This document shows, piece after piece, positions 21,119-29,065 of a stretch of DNA of 64,000 nucleotides (the first letter of the stretch is position 1; every line of letters begins with the position of its first letter). Made by a program: the position numbers and the translations under genes. The notes under the pieces are model-generated. The model saw nothing but the letters and a program-made list of their open reading frames with translations. It was not told the origin of the DNA and ran no database searches. Where the stretch lies: NCBI GenBank assembly GCA_965198225.1, contig CBDAOY010000006.1, positions 320,001 to 384,000 on the forward strand, read 5' to 3'. This DNA comes from Terriglobia bacterium. GTDB lineage: Bacteria > Acidobacteriota > Terriglobia > 20CM-2-55-15.

Positions 21119-21568
21119 ACGAGGCCACTCCTTTGAGCTCGGGCGTCATGTGATTAGACGATAGGAAGCACTAGCAATCCTGCGACGTGTCGTCTTCCCG
21201 GCCCAAGCGATCGTGGCACGGTAGCAGACCCACAGCCTCCCTGGCAATGACGATAGGAAGCGCCTACTTCGTGTCCGTCTCTTTCCACGCTTCGCCTATG
21301 CCGCCGTTGCCGAGGGGGAGAGGATCTCGTAGTGGCCAAGCTCCGTGCCAGGCTGCATGTTTTAGAGCCCGTCGGATTAGATGCTAGAAATCTCGGCAAC
21401 TATAACTACAGGTGGGAGTTAAACGCAATCAAACAGTCCCATGCCTGAAATGGGGCCTTCCCGACGAGATCGACAAGGCAGTGTAGCCGACTATACAGCA
21501 AGGTGGATTGAGGGCAGTGGGGCGGATCGAGAGGGTTTGTCGGGGGCAGAAGGCTCGAACACAGATCC

Positions 21569-21635
21569 CTAAGGCACTGGCACACGTTCCTTCAGTTCTT
21601 CGAACCAGTTCAGAACAACTGTGATCGGGATCGAA
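21569..21635 (-). pseudogene. C-terminal remnant of a kinase-PD40 type protein
   Basis: Translates ITVVLNWFEELKERVPVP*, the typical tail of acidobacterial kinase/TolB-like proteins. Confidence 0.75.
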
Positions 21636-22152
21636 CCGGTTTCGGCGGTCGGTCGGCTACTCGTAGATGTGCATGGGCGCTAACCAGAAAAGTGCCCACT
21701 GCATTGACCTCAAGCCCCTTGCCTCGTACCCTTCTTTTCCGGATTTGCTCGTGCGGTTCGTTCCTGCAGTGCTTTTCGAACTTCCCGGCTACGTTCTCTC
21801 ATCCGAAGTTTTGCCTTGCGCAGACGGTTGAAGCGCGCCTTGTCACCATTTCTTGCAGACATTTGTCACCTCACATAATTCAGCATTCAGATTCTAGTCA
21901 TTTGTGAACGAATAGAAAGTGTCCTCTTGCTAACGGAACGACAAAGGCCACTGGATGAACATTCAGACCCCCGGCTTTCCCGACGAGATCCACAAGGAAG
22001 TGTAGGCGACTAGAACGAAGCCGCTGGCGCGGCGGACGCTACGCGTGTGCTGAGCGAAGAGTGATGAGCCCCCGAATCCCGGTAGGAGGTGAAGTGACCC
22101 TCACCCCCTCCGGACAGAACGGCTCGTACCGGCCAGGTAAGCCGCTCTTCGA

Positions 22153-23769
22153 TCAGCGAGCAAACTCCAGTTTGAGATTCCGCTGCGCGAAGTCGTGGAG
22201 AAAGACGAGTCCCTGGCGCCGAAACCACTCCAGGCTCAGGACGAAACGGACCTCCCGCCGCATGACGGATTGCCACGCCTTCATCCGCACCCAGGTTCGG
22301 CGGGCGTAATACACCGGGGCGCCGGCGCGAATCATCATCCGCTGGAACTTCGCCGGCTTCTTCCACTTCTTCAACTGCATGGACCGGAGCCGACTACGGA
22401 TGAATCCATCTAGCTCTTGGAAGATCTTCCGGAACTCCTGGATGCGGTAATACCCGACCCATCCTTCAAGATATTCGTTGAGTTCGCCAATGACCTGGTG
22501 CATCGATAGCCCGTTATTCCGCCGTGTCCGGGATCGGACCTCTTGCACGAAGCGCTTCCGCGCCCGCGTACTCACCCGAATCTGACCCCGCAGGATCTGG
22601 AATCCTAAGAACTCCACATCCTTGATCGGGGCCACGCGGCTCTTGTCCCGGTTGACGCGCAGTCCGAGTTCCTCTTCGAGGAATCGTGTGATACCTTCCA
22701 TCACCCGTAGAGCCGCCCGCTCCGTTCGCAACAGGATGACGAAATCATCGGCCCACCGGCTGAACCGGTGTCCCCGCCGTTCCAGTTCCTGGTCGAGCTC
22801 ATTGAGCACGATGTTGGACAGGACCGGCGAGACCGGGGAGCCTTGGGGACATCCCTGATCCGTCTTCTCGATAACACCATCCACAGCAGCTCCTGCCTTC
22901 AGCACCCGCACGATCAACGTAACGAGCCGCTCATCTCGGATTCTCTGTCGAATGAGCTTGAGGATCAGGTTGTGGGGGATCTCATCGAAGAAGCTCTGGA
23001 TGTCGAGGGATGCACACCACTCATAGCCCTCCATCACGCCTTCCCGCACATGGCGAATGGCCTGGTGTTGGCTCTTACCACGCCGAAACCCGAAGTTGGA
23101 CCCGCTGAAGTCCGGCTCAAAGATTTCCGTCAACACAGCATGGAGACTTTGACTGACCACGCGGTCCATCACGACGGGAATACCCAGCTTCCTCTTCTTC
23201 GAACTGCCCGGCTTGGGGATCAGAACCCTCTTTGCGGGCTTGAAACGGTATGTCCCGGCTTTCAGCTTGTCGTGGATGAGTGAGAGAAATTCATCCTCTC
23301 TTTCCCCGAAGGCTTCGACCGTCATGTTGTCCACCCCGGCGGCTCCGGCGTTGGCCCGTACCTGCTGCCACGCCTGAACCAGTCGCCTCCGGTCGTAGAC
23401 CCGTTTCATCACTCCAACAACTTTCAGTTCACTTCCTCCGTGACTGTCTTCCGCCAGGGATGGCCGGGGGTGGTTGGCGTTGTCGCCGGACCCGGACGGC
23501 TGATGACCGCGGCGGTTTTCCGCCTCGGCGCCCATGTGGAACTCGCCGCCCCCGATGGCTTTCTGGGCCCCTTGCTCCATCCACTGAGTCGACTCCCTGT
23601 CGGTGTCACTCTCGCCTCTCGTCCATGACTTCCCACCGCCGGTTGGCGATCTCCGGCCGTCCGGGTTGTCCCAGAGATTCAGTTGCTCCGGCTGCTGCCA
23701 GGGCGCCCGTTTCTCTCTTTGTTTCCCGGTCGTCAGGGTTTTATCCTCCGCACTGTTGCCAGGCTTCAT
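22153..23769 (-). CDS. ltrA: Group II intron reverse transcriptase/maturase (intron A), no endonuclease domain
   Basis: GAAGVD, RKLGIP, FGFRRGKS, DIQSFFD, GCPQGSPVSPVLSNI, RWADD, FLGF, maturase X domain; true start probably near 23409. Confidence 0.93.
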   Translation of the reverse strand: MKPGNSAEDKTLTTGKQREKRAPWQQPEQLNLWDNPDGRRSPTGGGKSWTRGESDTDRESTQWMEQGAQKAIGGGEFHMGAEAENRRGHQPSGSGDNANHPRPSLAEDSHGGSELKVVGVMKRVYDRRRLVQAWQQVRANAGAAGVDNMTVEAFGEREDEFLSLIHDKLKAGTYRFKPAKRVLIPKPGSSKKRKLGIPVVMDRVVSQSLHAVLTEIFEPDFSGSNFGFRRGKSQHQAIRHVREGVMEGYEWCASLDIQSFFDEIPHNLILKLIRQRIRDERLVTLIVRVLKAGAAVDGVIEKTDQGCPQGSPVSPVLSNIVLNELDQELERRGHRFSRWADDFVILLRTERAALRVMEGITRFLEEELGLRVNRDKSRVAPIKDVEFLGFQILRGQIRVSTRARKRFVQEVRSRTRRNNGLSMHQVIGELNEYLEGWVGYYRIQEFRKIFQELDGFIRSRLRSMQLKKWKKPAKFQRMMIRAGAPVYYARRTWVRMKAWQSVMRREVRFVLSLEWFRRQGLVFLHDFAQRNLKLEFAR

Positions 23770-23787
23770 CGGCCCTGAGTCCTCAGT

Positions 23788-25943
23788 GTAGAGTCGAAAG
23801 TGGTCGGGCTGGTCTGCCCTTCCACCGTCCGCTCAATCAAACGGCTCGTGCGGTTTTCCCGCAAGCCGCTTTCCTCAGTTGCTCCTCGCACGGAGTCACC
23901 GGTCCACGAGACCGGGAATCAGATGCGTCAGTCGGACCAGACCGAATTCTCGAATAAGTCGTCGCGTCGGATAACGGCGCCACATCGTATTTCTCCACCG
24001 TTTCGCGAGAAACGAGTAGATACGGCGCTCAATCCAACGGTCCAGCTCGTTGAAGAGTCGGCGCACCCTCGCTTTGCGGTAATAGTTCCCCCAGCCCCGA
24101 ATCACCGGGTTGAGCTGGTCGATGACTTCGCCCAGCTTCAGGGGAGCCTTACGGCGCGAGAGGTGTCGGATTTGCGTCCGGAACCTCTCGACCGACTTTT
24201 CCCGTGGAATGGCATACAGGTTATGGGGGTGCATTCCGCGACCACGCCTCTGTGTATCGGACAGACGCAGTCCTTTCCCTTGTTTCACCTTGTACCCCAA
24301 GAACTCAAAGCCTTGTCGAACGTGTACAATCCGCGTCTTCTTCGGATGAAGTCGAACTCCAAGTTCCTCCCAGAGAAACCGCTCTGCAAATGCGAGCGCC
24401 TGCCGGGCTTGGGCCGGTGTCCTACAAACCACCACAAAGTCGTCCGCCCAGCGTGTGAGTCTGTGACCTTGCCGGGTCATCGCACGGTCAAACGGCGTCA
24501 GAAAGATGTTCGACCACAACGGACTGGCCACTCCCCCTTGGGGAACTCCCGTCCGCGTGGGTTGCCAGCAACCTCCTTCCAATACCCCCGAACCCAGGAT
24601 TGCCCGGATCAGCCCCAGAACTCGGCCGTCGCTGATCTCTTCGGCGATCAAGTCGAGAAGCTTCTCCTGGTCGATCGTGTCAAAGAACTGCCGTAGGTCA
24701 GCATCAACCACCCAGAGGTCTCCGGCGCCTAGCTCTGCCCAGACTTTCCGCATCGCATCATGGGGTGAACGCCCCTTGCGATACCCGAATGAGCAGTCCA
24801 GAAACAACGGCTCGAAGATTGGTTCCATCCGCTGGACCAGCGCCTGCTGACAGACCCGATCCATTACGGCCGGTATCCCCAGCTTTCGCATTCCTCCGTC
24901 GGACTTCCCGATCTCGACTCGCTTTACCGGCTTGGGTCGATAGGTGTCATCCCGCAGCTTTTGATGCAACAAGGCCAGATACTCCTCCTTGCACGTTTCA
25001 AACTGCTCAATGGTCACTTCGTCGATGCCCGCGCTACCTCGGTTCCGTTTCACTTTCTCCCAGGCCAACTCCAGATTCTTGCGACTAAACACCTTGTCGA
25101 TCAGCGAGTGGACCTTTCGCTTCCTTCCCTGTCTGCTTTCCAATGTCGCTGTGTGGCGGCGGGCGGCGGCTTCATCCGTACCGCGTTTGGGTCTTTCACT
25201 AAAGGAACTATCCAAGTTCACGATATCTCCGCGTTTCCCATCGCTCGCACATTCCCAACTGAGTACGGGGACTTCCCCCTCCAACGGGCCTTTTGGACCC
25301 GCCAGCGCCGCTGCTCGAAGCAACGATCCGAGACCTTATGTTTGCCGTCTCGTTCCTGAGTACTATTCCCCGATCCGATTCCTGGCACCGCGTCGGCCGG
25401 AATTTCGCTCTCGCTTATATCCGCACCTACCTTGCGGGGCTCTAGGTCGATGTTTGTCTTCTCGGTTGCCCGCCCTTTCGTCTGCGGGTGCCACATCATC
25501 TCGACCTTACCTTCCGCCCGGACGATACCAGGCCTCCCTGGGTCACTCGCGTCTCTTCTCCACCGTGTCGCCCGCACACACCTTGGTGCGATGGGGTGGA
25601 ACCAAATGCGCCTTCGCCCCCATAGTGCGGGCTCGACCATTCCCCATCTTTGGCCGACCGGTTCATCCTCGGGATCGCTCCCTTCGATTACGACCCGGTG
25701 GTTCTCCTCATGCCCTTCAGACCCCACCTCGCGGTGGGCGCCCTGCCCTCCAAAGTTTCCGTAGGTGGCTCCAGCTCTGCCTTGGCCGTTTCCGGCTTTC
25801 GCCTTCGTGCCCGTTTAGGCATCTGCCATACCTGCCTACACTCCGGCCAGTGAGGCATTACCCCCACTTGTTGGATATCGACCCGTGGCCTCGGGCCGAG
25901 CGGGACTTTAACCCGCCGGAAACGCGTGCTGCCAGGCACGCAC
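23788..25943 (-). mobile_element. Group II intron B (inner, nested in intron A)
   Basis: 5' GTGCGTGCCTGG at 25943; DV AAAGCGGCTTGCGGGAAAACCGCACGAGCCGTTT; DVI ending CGACTCTAC at 23788. Confidence 0.88.
23896..25323 (-). CDS. ltrA: Group II intron reverse transcriptase/maturase (intron B), no endonuclease domain
   Basis: HSLIDKV, GSAGID, RKLGIP, GVPQGGVASPLWSNI, RWADD, FLGY, LNPVIRGWGNYY; start uncertain. Confidence 0.93.
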   Translation of the reverse strand: MLRAAALAGPKGPLEGEVPVLSWECASDGKRGDIVNLDSSFSERPKRGTDEAAARRHTATLESRQGRKRKVHSLIDKVFSRKNLELAWEKVKRNRGSAGIDEVTIEQFETCKEEYLALLHQKLRDDTYRPKPVKRVEIGKSDGGMRKLGIPAVMDRVCQQALVQRMEPIFEPLFLDCSFGYRKGRSPHDAMRKVWAELGAGDLWVVDADLRQFFDTIDQEKLLDLIAEEISDGRVLGLIRAILGSGVLEGGCWQPTRTGVPQGGVASPLWSNIFLTPFDRAMTRQGHRLTRWADDFVVVCRTPAQARQALAFAERFLWEELGVRLHPKKTRIVHVRQGFEFLGYKVKQGKGLRLSDTQRRGRGMHPHNLYAIPREKSVERFRTQIRHLSRRKAPLKLGEVIDQLNPVIRGWGNYYRKARVRRLFNELDRWIERRIYSFLAKRWRNTMWRRYPTRRLIREFGLVRLTHLIPGLVDR

Positions 25944-26406
25944 TATCCATGGATCTGCCACCCTCTGCTCCCTGCCCGCTACGGAATCGCCGTTCGCGGC
26001 TCGGTTTTCGAACGTCAGGTCACGGCGGACTGGATAACCCAATGTCCTTTGAGCGCCTGGGCGGGCGCACCCGCTGTGGGTCCCGACATCGAAGCAGTAG
26101 GGCTTCCCGGGGTAAGACACGCCCCCTCCTCGTATCCCGTCCGGCTTCAGCTCCCTTCGGTAACTCCGATCGAATATCGGGGCTCGCTCTCTCAAGCCTG
26201 CTCGCCCCCCTCCGGGCACCCATCTAGCCGGTTCGCTGTTCGCTACGTACACGAGTTCTGCCTCATGCTTCCTCCGGACATCCCATCTCTGAGACTGCCC
26301 TTGCCTTGTTGGCGTTCGCCTTCCGTCCGATCACGGTGGCTTTCCTGCCTTCGGTTGGCGTGCCATGCCCGGCGCACTAGAGTGTGAGCCTCACAAGGAG
26401 GCTCAC

Positions 26407-27297
26407 ATGACGAAGCTGCGACAACGGATGCTGGAGGAACTCCAGCGCCGGAACTACTCACCCGCTACGATTCGGCTGTATCTTCACGCGGTCGAAGACT
26501 TCGCCCGCTACTTCGGGAAGTCCCCCGACAAGCTCGAACAGGAACAGATGCGGCAGTACCAGCTGCATCTGCTTCAGGAGCGCAAGCTCGCTGTCGACAC
26601 CATCATCGGACGGATCGCCGCACTCCGGTTCTTCTACGTGAAGGTGCTTCGCCGTCCCTATCACCAGGTCGATCTGGTCTATCCGAAACAGCCGTCCCGG
26701 TTGCCCACGATTCTGAGCGAAGAGGAAGTGGCGCAACTGCTGGCCTCCGCCAACAGTGCCTATCACTTCGTCATCCTGATGACCTTGTATTCGACGGGAC
26801 TGCGGCGGGCCGAGCTGTGTCGTCTGAAGGTCGAGGACGTCGATAGCGAACGCATGGTGATCCATGTGAGGCAGGGTAAAGGCAATCGCGACCGCGACGT
26901 GCCGCTGTCACCGAAACTGCTGGAAGTCCTGCGCGACTACTGGCGTTGGCGGAAACCCGGCGAGTACCTCTTCCCCAGTTTGCTCCGGACCCGGCCCGGA
27001 CAGCCCATCGATGTGAAGACGGTTTGGTACGCCGTCCAACAAGCCGCCCAACGTGCCGGCATCAAAAAGAAAGTATCCCCACATACGCTGCGCCACAGCT
27101 GGGCCACCCACCTGCTGGAGAGGGGAACCGACCTGCGAACCATCCAGCTCCTGTTGGGTCATGTCGATCTGGAAGCGACGACCCTCTATCTCCATTTGTC
27201 TCAGGCGCACATGCAGCGCGTGGTGAACCCGATCGATTCTCTTCCGGTTCCCGATCTGGGACCGTCTCCCCGTCTGAGAAAGAAGAAAGGCGAATGA
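26407..27297 (+). CDS. Tyrosine recombinase/integrase with N-terminal SAM-like domain
   Basis: TGLRRAE (R), GKG (K), HTLRHSWATH, LLGH, TTLY; AAGGAGG RBS. Confidence 0.95.
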   Translation: MTKLRQRMLEELQRRNYSPATIRLYLHAVEDFARYFGKSPDKLEQEQMRQYQLHLLQERKLAVDTIIGRIAALRFFYVKVLRRPYHQVDLVYPKQPSRLPTILSEEEVAQLLASANSAYHFVILMTLYSTGLRRAELCRLKVEDVDSERMVIHVRQGKGNRDRDVPLSPKLLEVLRDYWRWRKPGEYLFPSLLRTRPGQPIDVKTVWYAVQQAAQRAGIKKKVSPHTLRHSWATHLLERGTDLRTIQLLLGHVDLEATTLYLHLSQAHMQRVVNPIDSLPVPDLGPSPRLRKKKGE

Positions 27298-28463
27298 GCC
27301 GGCCCGCCGTCGAGGTGGCCGACATCGTCCGCGCCCGGGTTCGAGGTTTCCTCCAGCGTCACCGCCTCGGCATCCAGAAGCTCAAGGTCCTGCGCGCCAT
27401 CCTGAACTGTCGTACTGCGGCTCTGGGTGGCCACATCGACCGGTGTGCCGATTGTGGCCGGGAGTCCGGAATCTCGTTCAACTCCTGCCGCAACCGCCAC
27501 TGCCCGAAGTGTCAGACCCAGGCCCGACGACGGTGGCTCGAAGCACGAGAAGCCGAACTGCTGCCCACCCCCTACTTCCACGTCGTGTTCACCGTCCCGC
27601 ACCAGTTCCATCCGTTCTTCTTCCACAACCCTGCCCTACTCTACAGCCTGCTGTTTCGCAGCGTGGCCGACACGATGATCGAGGTGGCGGCCAATCCGAA
27701 ACGACTCGGCGCCCGGATCGGCTTCTTCGGCATCCTGCATACCTGGAGTCAGAACCTGGAGTTCCATCCCCACATCCACTGCGTGGTACCGGCCGGCGGA
27801 CTGGCTCCGGATCAGTCCCGTTGGATTCCGGGTTCTGGGCGCTTCTTCCTCCCCAAGCAGGTGCTCGCCCGAGTCTTCCGTGGCAAGTTCATCGACGGGC
27901 TCGGGCGAGCGATCGCCGACGGTTCGCTCGAACTGTCCGGCTCGATTCGACCCTTCGGCGAACCGCAACACTTTCGGCGGTTCCGCCGCCAGATCCATTC
28001 CCGCAACTGGGTCGTCTATATCAAACGACCCTTTGGTGGCCCCGAACAGGTGCTCCGCTACCTGGGCCGCTACACCCATCGGGTCGCCATCTCCAACCAT
28101 CGATTGATCTCGTTTGACGGTAACCGGGTCCGGTTCCGTTGGCGGGATTACCGCAATGGCAACAAGAGTCGCATCATGACACTCGCGGCCGACGAGTTCA
28201 TCCGACGGTTCTTATTGCACGTTCTGCCGAAGGGCTTCGTCCGCATCCGACACTTCGGATTCATGGCCAACTACCGCCGGTCGGCCGCCTTCGCTCTCTG
28301 TCGCCAACTCCTCGATGCCATGCCGAGGGTCGAATCTGACGAAACCACCACCTCGAACTCTTCCTGGTCGTGTCCGCACTGTCAGGGACCGATGACTCTC
28401 ATCCAACGCTTCACCGCTCTGCAACTCGTAGCGAGGCTCGCCTTCCAATGCGATACGTCCTAA
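27294..28463 (+). CDS. IS91 family (Y2/HUH) transposase
   Basis: CRTAALGGH, SCRNRHCPKCQ, YFHVVFTVP, HPHIH, YLGRYTHRVAISN, LHVLPKGFVRIRHFG; ATGA overlap with integrase stop. Confidence 0.95.
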   Translation: MSRPAVEVADIVRARVRGFLQRHRLGIQKLKVLRAILNCRTAALGGHIDRCADCGRESGISFNSCRNRHCPKCQTQARRRWLEAREAELLPTPYFHVVFTVPHQFHPFFFHNPALLYSLLFRSVADTMIEVAANPKRLGARIGFFGILHTWSQNLEFHPHIHCVVPAGGLAPDQSRWIPGSGRFFLPKQVLARVFRGKFIDGLGRAIADGSLELSGSIRPFGEPQHFRRFRRQIHSRNWVVYIKRPFGGPEQVLRYLGRYTHRVAISNHRLISFDGNRVRFRWRDYRNGNKSRIMTLAADEFIRRFLLHVLPKGFVRIRHFGFMANYRRSAAFALCRQLLDAMPRVESDETTTSNSSWSCPHCQGPMTLIQRFTALQLVARLAFQCDTS

Positions 28464-29065
28464 TCCTCCTTCACAAACCGACGACCGACGTGCGGTTCAG
28501 CCACGTCCTCGCCGGAGTGTGCCTCCGCTGCAAAATCCCCTCAGATCCCGTCCTTTCAACCCACCGATTCCCCGACCCAACTGCTTTCCGATTCACACCA
28601 TCGACGCGGTCATCGACCGCCGGTCCCCCTCCTCGCCCCAACGCCACTCCAGATCCGGCCCGCTTCCGGCTACTTTCTCCATAGCCCACCGCGTCCGCCG
28701 CATTCGGCCAGCGCCCTCCTTCAAGTCTTGTTATCGAAACTGCCGCGGTGGGAACTTCTCGCTCATCCTGTGGCCGCGCTCGCCGCGGCACTTCCGATGA
28801 ACGCTAACGACTTCCCAGGCATCTGGATGATCGACTTCGAGGAGGACCGATTTGATGGACATAGATGGTCGGGTCGGTCAGCATAGCACCGGACTCGCCT
28901 AAGTCTCGTCAAAGAAGTCGTCGAGGCCCAGGTGCTGCCAGTGACAAGAACTCGCAATGAGTGAACATCAGGCAAAGATTGCCGCGATACTCAGCCTTTG
29001 TAGGCTGGAGGGTTTCCTATAAACCTGGAAGTTTAACCATGCGACTTCAGGAGGACCAGAATCAC

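Follow-up and report, generated by a model that had tools for sequence, protein, structure and literature searches.

An IS91-family element interrupted by a group II intron that is itself interrupted by a second group II intron in a Terriglobia genome

The outer element and the order of the layers

The subject of this report is a stretch of 64,000 nt (C6:320001-384000, hereafter the window) from the genome of a Terriglobia bacterium, which comprises 6.4 Mb in 9 contigs, and in which an insertion sequence (IS) of the IS91 family is interrupted by a group II intron, A, that is in turn interrupted by another group II intron, B (Table 1). This nest of three layers, first proposed in a sequence-only reading of the window, is genuine, and its limits are now precisely set by comparison with the other copies present in the same genome (G000), with the genomes of relatives and with the contigs of four public runs. 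The order of the layers had been read correctly: intron-free copies of the IS rejoin at the site of A, and alleles of A free of B exist. All four genes of the nest, int and tnpA of the IS and those of the two intron-encoded proteins (IEP-A and IEP-B), retain open frames, as the same reading had stated, and both introns possess the parts that define a group II intron, namely a reverse transcriptase (RT)/maturase open reading frame (ORF), a domain V and a domain VI with a bulged A. In the whole genome, maturase-domain matches amount to 31 and domain V/VI matches to 32.

Table 1. Features of the nest, with window coordinates, strand and the basis of each assignment
Feature	Position	Strand	Basis
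IS91-family element with int and tnpA	~22007..28811	+	8 full copies share ends; single CGAC at C6:633.28 kb as paralogous uninterrupted target
Base A, T in 7 other full copies (CGACTTGAACG)	22012	+	Left-end alignment, 8 copies
Left (terIS-side) subterminal palindrome, GCCGC-TGGC-GCGGC	22020..22033	+	Direct reading
Intron A, class-C-like group II intron	22076..26377	-	Empty site in 7 IS copies; second copy C9:456879-459948; homologues in G015, G024, G027
Domains V and VI of A	22076..22147	-	Direct reading; consensus fold gives both helices; invariant in 5/5 homologues except the domain VI loop
IEP-A, 418-aa RT/maturase without endonuclease domain	22153..23409	-	Pfam RVT_1 and GIIM; TIGR04416 370 bits
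Intron B, 2154 nt, GCGTG...CTCTAC, between ...GGATAGT and ACTGAGG... of A	23788..25941	-	Empty-site comparisons
Domain V of B: 9-bp basal stem with AGC, AC bulge, 4-bp distal stem	23839..23871	-	Direct reading
IEP-B, 441-aa RT/maturase without endonuclease domain	23896..25221	-	Pfam RVT_1 and GIIM; TIGR04416 390 bits
B's own homing site AATAGT/ACTCAGG, uninterrupted here	25361..25362	-	14 uninterrupted and 4 interrupted B-family copies
Candidate exon-binding site 1 (EBS1) of B, ACTAT, complementary to RTAGT	25622..25626	-	Inferred; chance 5-mer matches ~0.6 per 580 nt
5' ribozyme half of A, 436 nt	25942..26377	-	Rfam group-II-D1D4-3 match 26117-26295; candidate EBS1 TTGA 26192-26195
Target of A: hairpin GTGAGCCTC-CTTGT-GAGGCTCAC (26406-26384), then ACTCTA (26383-26378)	26378..26406	-	Direct reading; all 8 IS copies
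int, 296 aa, XerC/D- and integron-integrase-like tyrosine recombinase	26407..27297	+	Pfam Phage_integrase; NF040815 223 bits (cut-off 220)
tnpA, 389 aa, IS91-family HUH-Y2 transposase	27294..28463	+	Pfam; NF033538 432.6 bits (cut-off 125)
Right (oriIS-side) subterminal palindrome	28773..28789	+	Direct reading

Once the introns are removed the IS is about 2.5 kb long, and the genome holds eight full copies, that of the window included, together with two partial ones. CGAC stands at both ends in all eight full copies, the left end being the terIS side and the right one the oriIS side, and the sequence that they share in an alignment of their ends runs from CGACTTGAACG... through ...GCTAACGAC; the T to A change at 22012, 2 nt inside the terIS-side CGAC, is unique to the window copy. 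A true empty allele was not found for any of the copies, and one paralogous uninterrupted site shows a single CGAC. The description of the host as an integrase-IS91 element is borne out by Pfam and NCBIfam profiles, which recover both a tyrosine recombinase and an IS91 transposase. In particular, tnpA encodes an IS91-family HUH-Y2 transposase with an N-terminal zinc-binding domain (Zn_Tnp_IS91, PF14319, followed by Y2_Tnp, PF04986), and int starts with the ATG at 26407, the start at 26365 chosen by the ORF caller being an in-frame ATG within intron A. The stop codon of int and the ATG of tnpA overlap (ATGA), and the int-tnpA region of the window copy is 100% identical to that of three other copies. 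Members of the IS91 family with an upstream integrase are already catalogued.

In the layout of IS91 itself, terIS lies upstream of the genes and oriIS downstream, a tetranucleotide abuts oriIS and subterminal palindromes are found at the ends (PMC13181058). The element of the window is similar in its HUH-Y2 transposase and in the overlap of an upstream stop codon with the tnpA start. Its ends also appear to follow the IS91 pattern: ter and ori differ, each has a subterminal palindrome, inverted repeats are lacking, and one tetranucleotide occurs both at ter and beside ori. It differs in that the upstream gene encodes a 296-aa tyrosine recombinase and not orf121, and in its tetranucleotide, GTCG on the bottom strand (PMC13181058).

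The limits assigned to A, 22076-26377, proved exact. In fact, the bases that flank it, 22075 and 26378, are contiguous in 7/7 other full IS copies, in which the reconstructed junction was looked for and found, so that the 4302 nt are an insertion with unique boundaries. Its placement antisense to the integrase gene and 29 nt ahead of the start codon also agrees with the position of the insertion point relative to the ATG at 26407, and this antisense orientation would bar the splicing of A from the int-tnpA mRNA.

Intron A and its stem-loop targets

Intron A is 4302 nt long, or 2148 nt once B is removed, and its sequence, GTGCG...GGGAT, gives boundaries (GUGCG...AU) that fit the group II consensus GUGYG...AY. 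Domain V (22117-22147, 31 nt) is composed of a 9-bp basal stem, an AC bulge and a 3-bp distal stem (ACC/GGU), and it is followed by domain VI (22076-22116) with its bulged A at 22083. The Rfam model group-II-D1D4-3, whose seed is not claimed to indicate an intron class, matches the 5' half with 67 bits (gathering score 32), and the motif AGGAA lies inside this domain I match; with RF00029, neither A nor B was matched at E<=1. IEP-A aligns end to end with the GsI-IIC RT (304-305 bits), and its scores with other solved proteins are 247 bits (Eubacterium rectale maturase) and 199 bits for class C (IIC) proteins, 123 bits for LtrA and 106 bits for the IIB protein of Thermosynechococcus elongatus. 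The gene lies in a frame of 538 aa, the first 120 codons of which are not conserved as coding sequence, relatives showing a 55-nt indel and 1-nt indels there. Minimum-free-energy folds and three-sequence consensus folds of A, from which B and the ORF had been deleted, gave convincing domains V and VI and an untrustworthy topology of domains I to III, and they were not used for placing B.

The hallmarks of IIC introns are a short distal stem of domain V (2 bp less than in IIA and IIB), the AGGAA motif, a CGC triad, a short intron-binding site 1 (IBS1) and insertion after terminator stem-loops (PMC1702495). Judged by its sequence, A appears to be class-C-like: its protein is closest to the solved IIC RTs and has no endonuclease (En) domain, the distal stem of its domain V is short and its targets are hairpins. 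It shares with B.h.I1, a IIC intron of Bacillus halodurans, an En-less RT/maturase, a location outside genes, insertion 3-11 nt past a terminator or inverted repeat with an apparently short IBS1, a putative EBS3-type signature (a constant T at +1), the short distal stem of domain V and AGGAA (PMC1702495). Unlike B.h.I1, it has an AGC triad and a longer 5' half and pre-ORF stretch, and the stem-loop ahead of it is the ribosome-binding site (RBS) hairpin of a transposon gene read antisense, with no T run (PMC1702495).

This 9-bp hairpin, which surrounds the RBS of int on the plus strand and leaves 6 nt between its end and the insertion point of A, was missed by the sequence-only reading and offers the simplest explanation for the site at which A entered the IS. 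A GC-rich hairpin is found 6-9 nt upstream of A in 8/8 copies with a readable 5' flank, namely those in the IS91 element, on C9 and on a contig of the public run X1, together with one in G015 and four in G024. The second copy of this genome (C9:456879-459948) stands behind a GC hairpin/terminator followed by TTTTCAG, and the near-identical A of X1 stands behind a perfect terminator followed by TTTTTCGA (loose end at 26378). On the other side, the 3' exon begins with T in 10/10 copies. The exon ends TCTA, TCAG and TCGA are compatible with the TTGA of a hairpin loop at 26192-26195, the candidate EBS1 of A; in G024 and G015 the loop reads GTAA and the last exon base is a pyrimidine, and at the window-type sites it is a purine, a correspondence that is suggestive. 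Two alternatives for EBS1 were rejected: TCGA, in a single-stranded stretch 3' of the loop, fits the X1 site alone, and the conserved CTAGA cannot account for the differing exon ends of the relatives.

Some further observations concern A and its protein. Both IEPs carry RWADDF, with W for the Y of YADD, at the position of RYADDC in the GsI-IIC RT (22750-22770 and 24440-24460, minus strand). At C4:95137-95501, beside another intron array, stand 365 nt from the 3' part of an A-like intron, which are 88% identical and keep domains V and VI intact. Finally, about 55 nt that follow the B site in the A of the window (23723-23668, minus strand) are absent from the homologues in G015, G024 and G027.

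Intron B, its site and its family

For B, the limits 23788-25943, with GTGCG as the start of the intron, had been proposed, of which the edge at 23788 stands; the other, the 5' end of B, was placed 2 nt off its true position, 25941. The junction reconstructed from the former limits, CCATGGATA/ACTGAGG, has no counterpart among the uninterrupted targets of B, all of which keep GT. In particular, the B-free alleles of A read ...GG(A/G)TAGT/ACTGA in four full copies and a 5'-truncated one in G024, in one copy in G015 and in the X1 contig of 1563 nt, which joins 23787 to 25942, the homologues in G024 and G015 having GGGTAGT/ACTGAA. For three other targets of B in this genome, a search for the predicted empty sites gave 7, 14 and 3 occurrences of the form that includes the 2 nt and 0, 0 and 0 of the form that lacks them; the site found seven times is that of the host of a single B copy in another intron family, which has seven protein-gene matches. 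The target inside B itself occurs uninterrupted 14 times (AATAGT/ACTCAGG) and interrupted 4 times (AATAGT/GCGTG). Furthermore, one B copy in G027 is preceded by GC rather than GT. The empty sites and this copy together make GT part of the target, and only 23788-25941 is consistent with all of them; the IBS of B thus becomes GATAGT, in place of the TGGATA proposed earlier, which is shifted by 2 nt.

The limits and the target of B are based on the ends of the family in this genome, 20 on the 5' and 22 on the 3' side, and on six further loci in G027 and G020, and the resulting consensus is RTAGT in the 5' exon with A always as the first base of the 3' exon. As delimited by these DNA insertion boundaries, B runs GCGUG...AC and departs from the consensus GUGYG at position 2; among the literature matches listed for group II introns starting with GCGUG, none concerns intron termini. 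The likely start codon of IEP-B is the GTG at 25221, with GGAG 5 nt upstream, and the protein is 39% identical to IEP-A. With the model group-II-D1D4-3, B scores 24.6 bits (E 0.09), which is below the threshold. The motif CRGA upstream of the B sites was discarded as an IBS2, its position being -16 to -13 in the intron hosts of this genome and -13 to -10 in G027.

Within A, the B site is 436 nt from the 5' end and 378 nt ahead of the start of IEP-A. By its position, B probably lies at the boundary of domains III and IV or in the 5' arm of domain IV; it does not lie in domains I, V or VI. The statement that B interrupts the ribozyme part of A is therefore right in so far as the site belongs to non-coding intron RNA, and wrong in so far as it lies past the 5' ribozyme half and outside domains I, V and VI. 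That B would have to be spliced out before A could fold, as the same reading supposed, is a possibility. The 65 nt that follow the B site are 94% conserved between genera, so the region after the site is probably functional.

Set against the numbers of its ends in the genome, the maturase matches of B type are few, three with one of them truncated, and only two intact full-length copies are present; most copies are thus ORF-less derivatives of about 0.9 kb that lack B positions 797-2047. The B of the window is not the sole functional master copy, since the copy at C5:501714-503866 has a GCGTG start and an open frame of 479 codons, and its apparent 5' 'mutation' is exon sequence. Members of the family occur in both copies of A, in B itself and in two or more further intron families, and in every one of these hosts the site is in non-coding RNA shortly ahead of the protein gene of the intron; in G027, B is also found at sites that could not be assigned to introns. 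The same A-B junction holds an ORF-less B on C9 and a full B in G027, so this site has been used repeatedly. The genome yielded no empty site for one more of the host intron families, a sign of high occupancy. Another nest of three levels, with two B derivatives inside another intron, is found at C6:840161-841975, and chimeric arrays suggest recombination between copies.

Arrays composed of several intron families, head-to-tail and nested, are found at C5:811000-819200, C6:839000-843600, C4:149800-153900 and C5:60600-64100. They include one intron followed by a second intron with B derivatives, some of which have tandemly duplicated 3' parts of B, and a multicopy element of 1.4 kb stands at the 3' end of one of the introns (C5:815631-817042). 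In G027 (C17, L021 4816-6312), a B nested in the A homologue is cut at about B position 495, a further layer of nesting, and a gene for a 443-aa DDE transposase (DUF772 and DDE_Tnp_1) stands at this interruption.

Introns nested in introns have been described in other organisms. Those of Methanosarcina acetivorans reportedly home into intron ORFs; the target of B is non-coding RNA upstream of IEP genes. In that archaeon up to five introns are nested, other introns serve as homing targets and copies are lost through recombination, and ORF-less introns are held to be rare in bacteria (both in the review PMC4424553). The B family has in common with the M. acetivorans introns the homing of introns into introns, the nests of several levels, the lack of coding exons, the ORF-less members and the loss or chimerism of copies, and it differs in being bacterial, in its start (GCGUG versus GUGYG) and in its outermost host, an IS91 element (PMC4424553). 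The twintrons of cyanobacteria (T.e.I7/I8 of Trichodesmium and four in T. elongatus) are similar in that an intron with an IEP lies in another intron with its own IEP (PMC4649490), and a further likeness is the mobilization in trans of ORF-less relatives in T. elongatus, as the review reports. The inner intron of Trichodesmium, however, is in domain I of its host and inside a protein gene, and sequential splicing has been shown (PMC4649490), whereas B probably lies near the boundary of domains III and IV of A, between non-coding exons, in a nest known from DNA.

Origin of the nest and insertion of its outer element

The nest is probably a pile of three selfish elements, built up by successive retrohoming events of the ordinary sort in which every element obeyed a target rule of its own. 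The host is one of the eight full copies of an IS91-family rolling-circle element in which tnpA is translationally coupled to a tyrosine recombinase. The En-less A would reverse-splice into single-stranded DNA (ssDNA) a few nucleotides past a stem-loop by means of 3-4 bp of EBS1-IBS1 pairing and of EBS3, as IIC introns generally do; the 9-bp RBS hairpin, on the antisense strand, would mimic the stem of a terminator, with A inserted 6 nt behind it, and its entry into the IS would be an ectopic (retrotransposition) event. The most probable place of exposure of the ssDNA target is a replication fork, a source of ssDNA used by En-less introns (PMC4424553); the GC skew of the contigs is small, with most values inside ±3%, and it turns from negative to positive in two contigs alike. 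B, which belongs to a different and larger family, would home to ...RTAGT/A(C)... upstream of the protein genes of introns, A and B included, and its full-length copies presumably supply RT/maturase in trans to the ORF-less derivatives. As to the consequences for the host, the 4.3-kb insert probably uncouples int-tnpA of the window copy from whatever promoter the left end of 71 nt may contain, the separation supposed by the sequence-only reading being plausible; a scan for sigma-70 promoters and terminators in the left end of an intron-free IS copy gave 0 sites. The other IS copies could provide Int and TnpA in trans.

The sequence-only reading had instead suggested that the introns may exploit the rolling-circle ssDNA of the IS91 element, in which case A, and perhaps B, entered the element while it was a single-stranded intermediate and the IS is a vehicle. 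The strands agree with this idea, as the sense strand of the intron coincides with the bottom one of the IS and is thus antisense to tnpA, and the functional ssDNA intermediate reported for IS91 is also the bottom strand (PMC13181058); in addition, ssDNA is needed for the hairpin target to extrude, and the IS ends fit that layout. The agreement has little weight, however, since orientation is fixed by a short IBS1 and IBS3 beside a palindromic stem, and the distribution of the introns gives no positive support. A is present in only one of the eight full IS copies (two partial ones exist besides), about 11 two-sided IS copies in the relatives G002, G003, G015 and G020 are all intron-free, and at the seven other A sites whose flanks can be read there are terminators or hairpins that have no relation to IS91. 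Moreover, priming and cDNA synthesis would still have to precede the integration of an ssDNA circle containing RNA, and the intron-bearing IS copy bears no sign of later transposition, so that we regard this route as quite improbable.

Sequential retrohoming also has to be weighed against the joint arrival of the two introns, A moving with B already inside and remaining catalytically competent with 2.15 kb of foreign intron, which we consider possible but doubtful. Both A copies of this genome, 99.7% identical to each other, are occupied at one and the same position by a member of the B family, and an A without such an insert is absent from the genome. Their inserts differ, however, being a full-length B in the window and a member of the ORF-less subfamily on C9, which shares the substitutions of that subfamily (98.3% over the first 115 nt, like other short copies), and this difference requires at least one extra event either way. 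The high occupancy seen in another host intron family fits efficient independent homing.

A number of observations weigh against the stacking of independent insertions, or against parts of it. No B-free A was found in this genome, and B may have entered A either before or after A entered the IS. The candidate EBS1 of A pairs with the IS91 site at only 3 of 4 positions; its catalytic triad, in a domain V that starts GAGCGG in the window and in four aligned homologues, is AGC and not the CGC typical of IIC, and its 5' half (436 nt) and non-coding stretch ahead of the ORF (378 nt) are large for this class. A basal stem of domain IV of A read by hand (...CAGGGAGCAGA with the stretch holding the IEP stop codon) was rejected, with two mismatches and no compensatory change in the relatives, and among the contigs of the RNA runs, consulted as assembled contigs, the spliced junction was not seen. 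As for the junctions in DNA, that between IS91 and A is attested by the present assembly alone, and none of the contig pieces listed from the four public runs bridges IS91/A or A/B, an absence that proves nothing, the best of these runs holding just 0.82 of the sampled words. The missing bridges are what would be expected if intron copies had been collapsed, or mis-joined into the IS, during assembly, but such an artefact is extremely improbable: the IS sequence on the two sides of A rejoins to the base in seven other copies, the insertions obey the hairpin rule of A and the RTAGT/A rule of B, dozens of repeats are resolved in the nine contigs, and the A/B junction recurs in the second A copy, on C9, and in the relative G027.

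Some of the public runs contain RNA evidence for the families. In two sponge metatranscriptome runs, ORF-less B is found at depths of 21 and 12.4, in unspliced contexts and in other hosts, and the contigs of these runs also include scattered low-depth pieces of A and of full-length B. No spliced joint was found among them, and carry-over of DNA is possible throughout. RNA cover of 25982-26600 is absent from the public runs, an absence that proves nothing.

Each layer of the nest represents a known behaviour, namely the insertion of a IIC intron past a stem-loop, the homing of an intron into introns accompanied by ORF-less riders, and the presence of an intron in a mobile element. What is new is that the IS91 host carries an integrase, that B starts with the non-consensus GCGUG and that ORF-less copies abound in a bacterium; among the literature matches listed, taken as titles and abstracts, there is no report of an intron inside an IS91 element. 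The locus offers a natural example of stacked target rules, in which the regulatory hairpin of a transposon baits a IIC intron and a conserved intron motif baits a second intron, and the genome and its relatives provide both occupied and vacant sites of two intron families, in one of which the DNA boundaries imply a GCGUG 5' end. This is material for studies on stem-loop recognition by IIC introns and on mobilization in trans, with no new mechanism by itself. A bolder proposal, which we think unlikely, is that B is a dedicated 'intron of introns', with its GCGUG 5' end, its homing to a motif at the entrance of domain IV and its swarm of ORF-less copies, and that three mobility mechanisms are combined in a single 6.8-kb unit by way of a single-stranded intermediate. 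If this were true, B would gain a vehicle at the DNA level, and HUH rolling-circle transposition, stem-loop retrotransposition and sequence-specific retrohoming could travel together.

The surroundings of the IS bear on its own insertion. The flanks of all eight copies are alike in inverted orientation (...ATCCAC...ATAGG / IS / TATACGG...GTGGAT; 21985-22006 and 28812-28835 in the window), and this inverted likeness suggests that the element is directed to imperfect palindromic repeats with CGAC at their centre; in appearance, the flanks are imperfect palindromes, unlike those of IS91. About 520 nt to the left of the window copy (21488-22006) belong to a repeat of three copies with 97-98% identity, the others being at C9:766830-767339 and C6:632819-633284; two of the three adjoin an IS copy and one holds the uninterrupted CGAC site, a pattern that could result from one-ended transposition past terIS or from repeated insertion into a repeat. 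To the right of the IS (28831-28887) stands a repeat of 40-57 nt, similar to repetitive extragenic palindromic (REP) sequences, with copies at C6:295195, 327532 (about 7532 in the window), 589991 and 637610 and at C9:821594.

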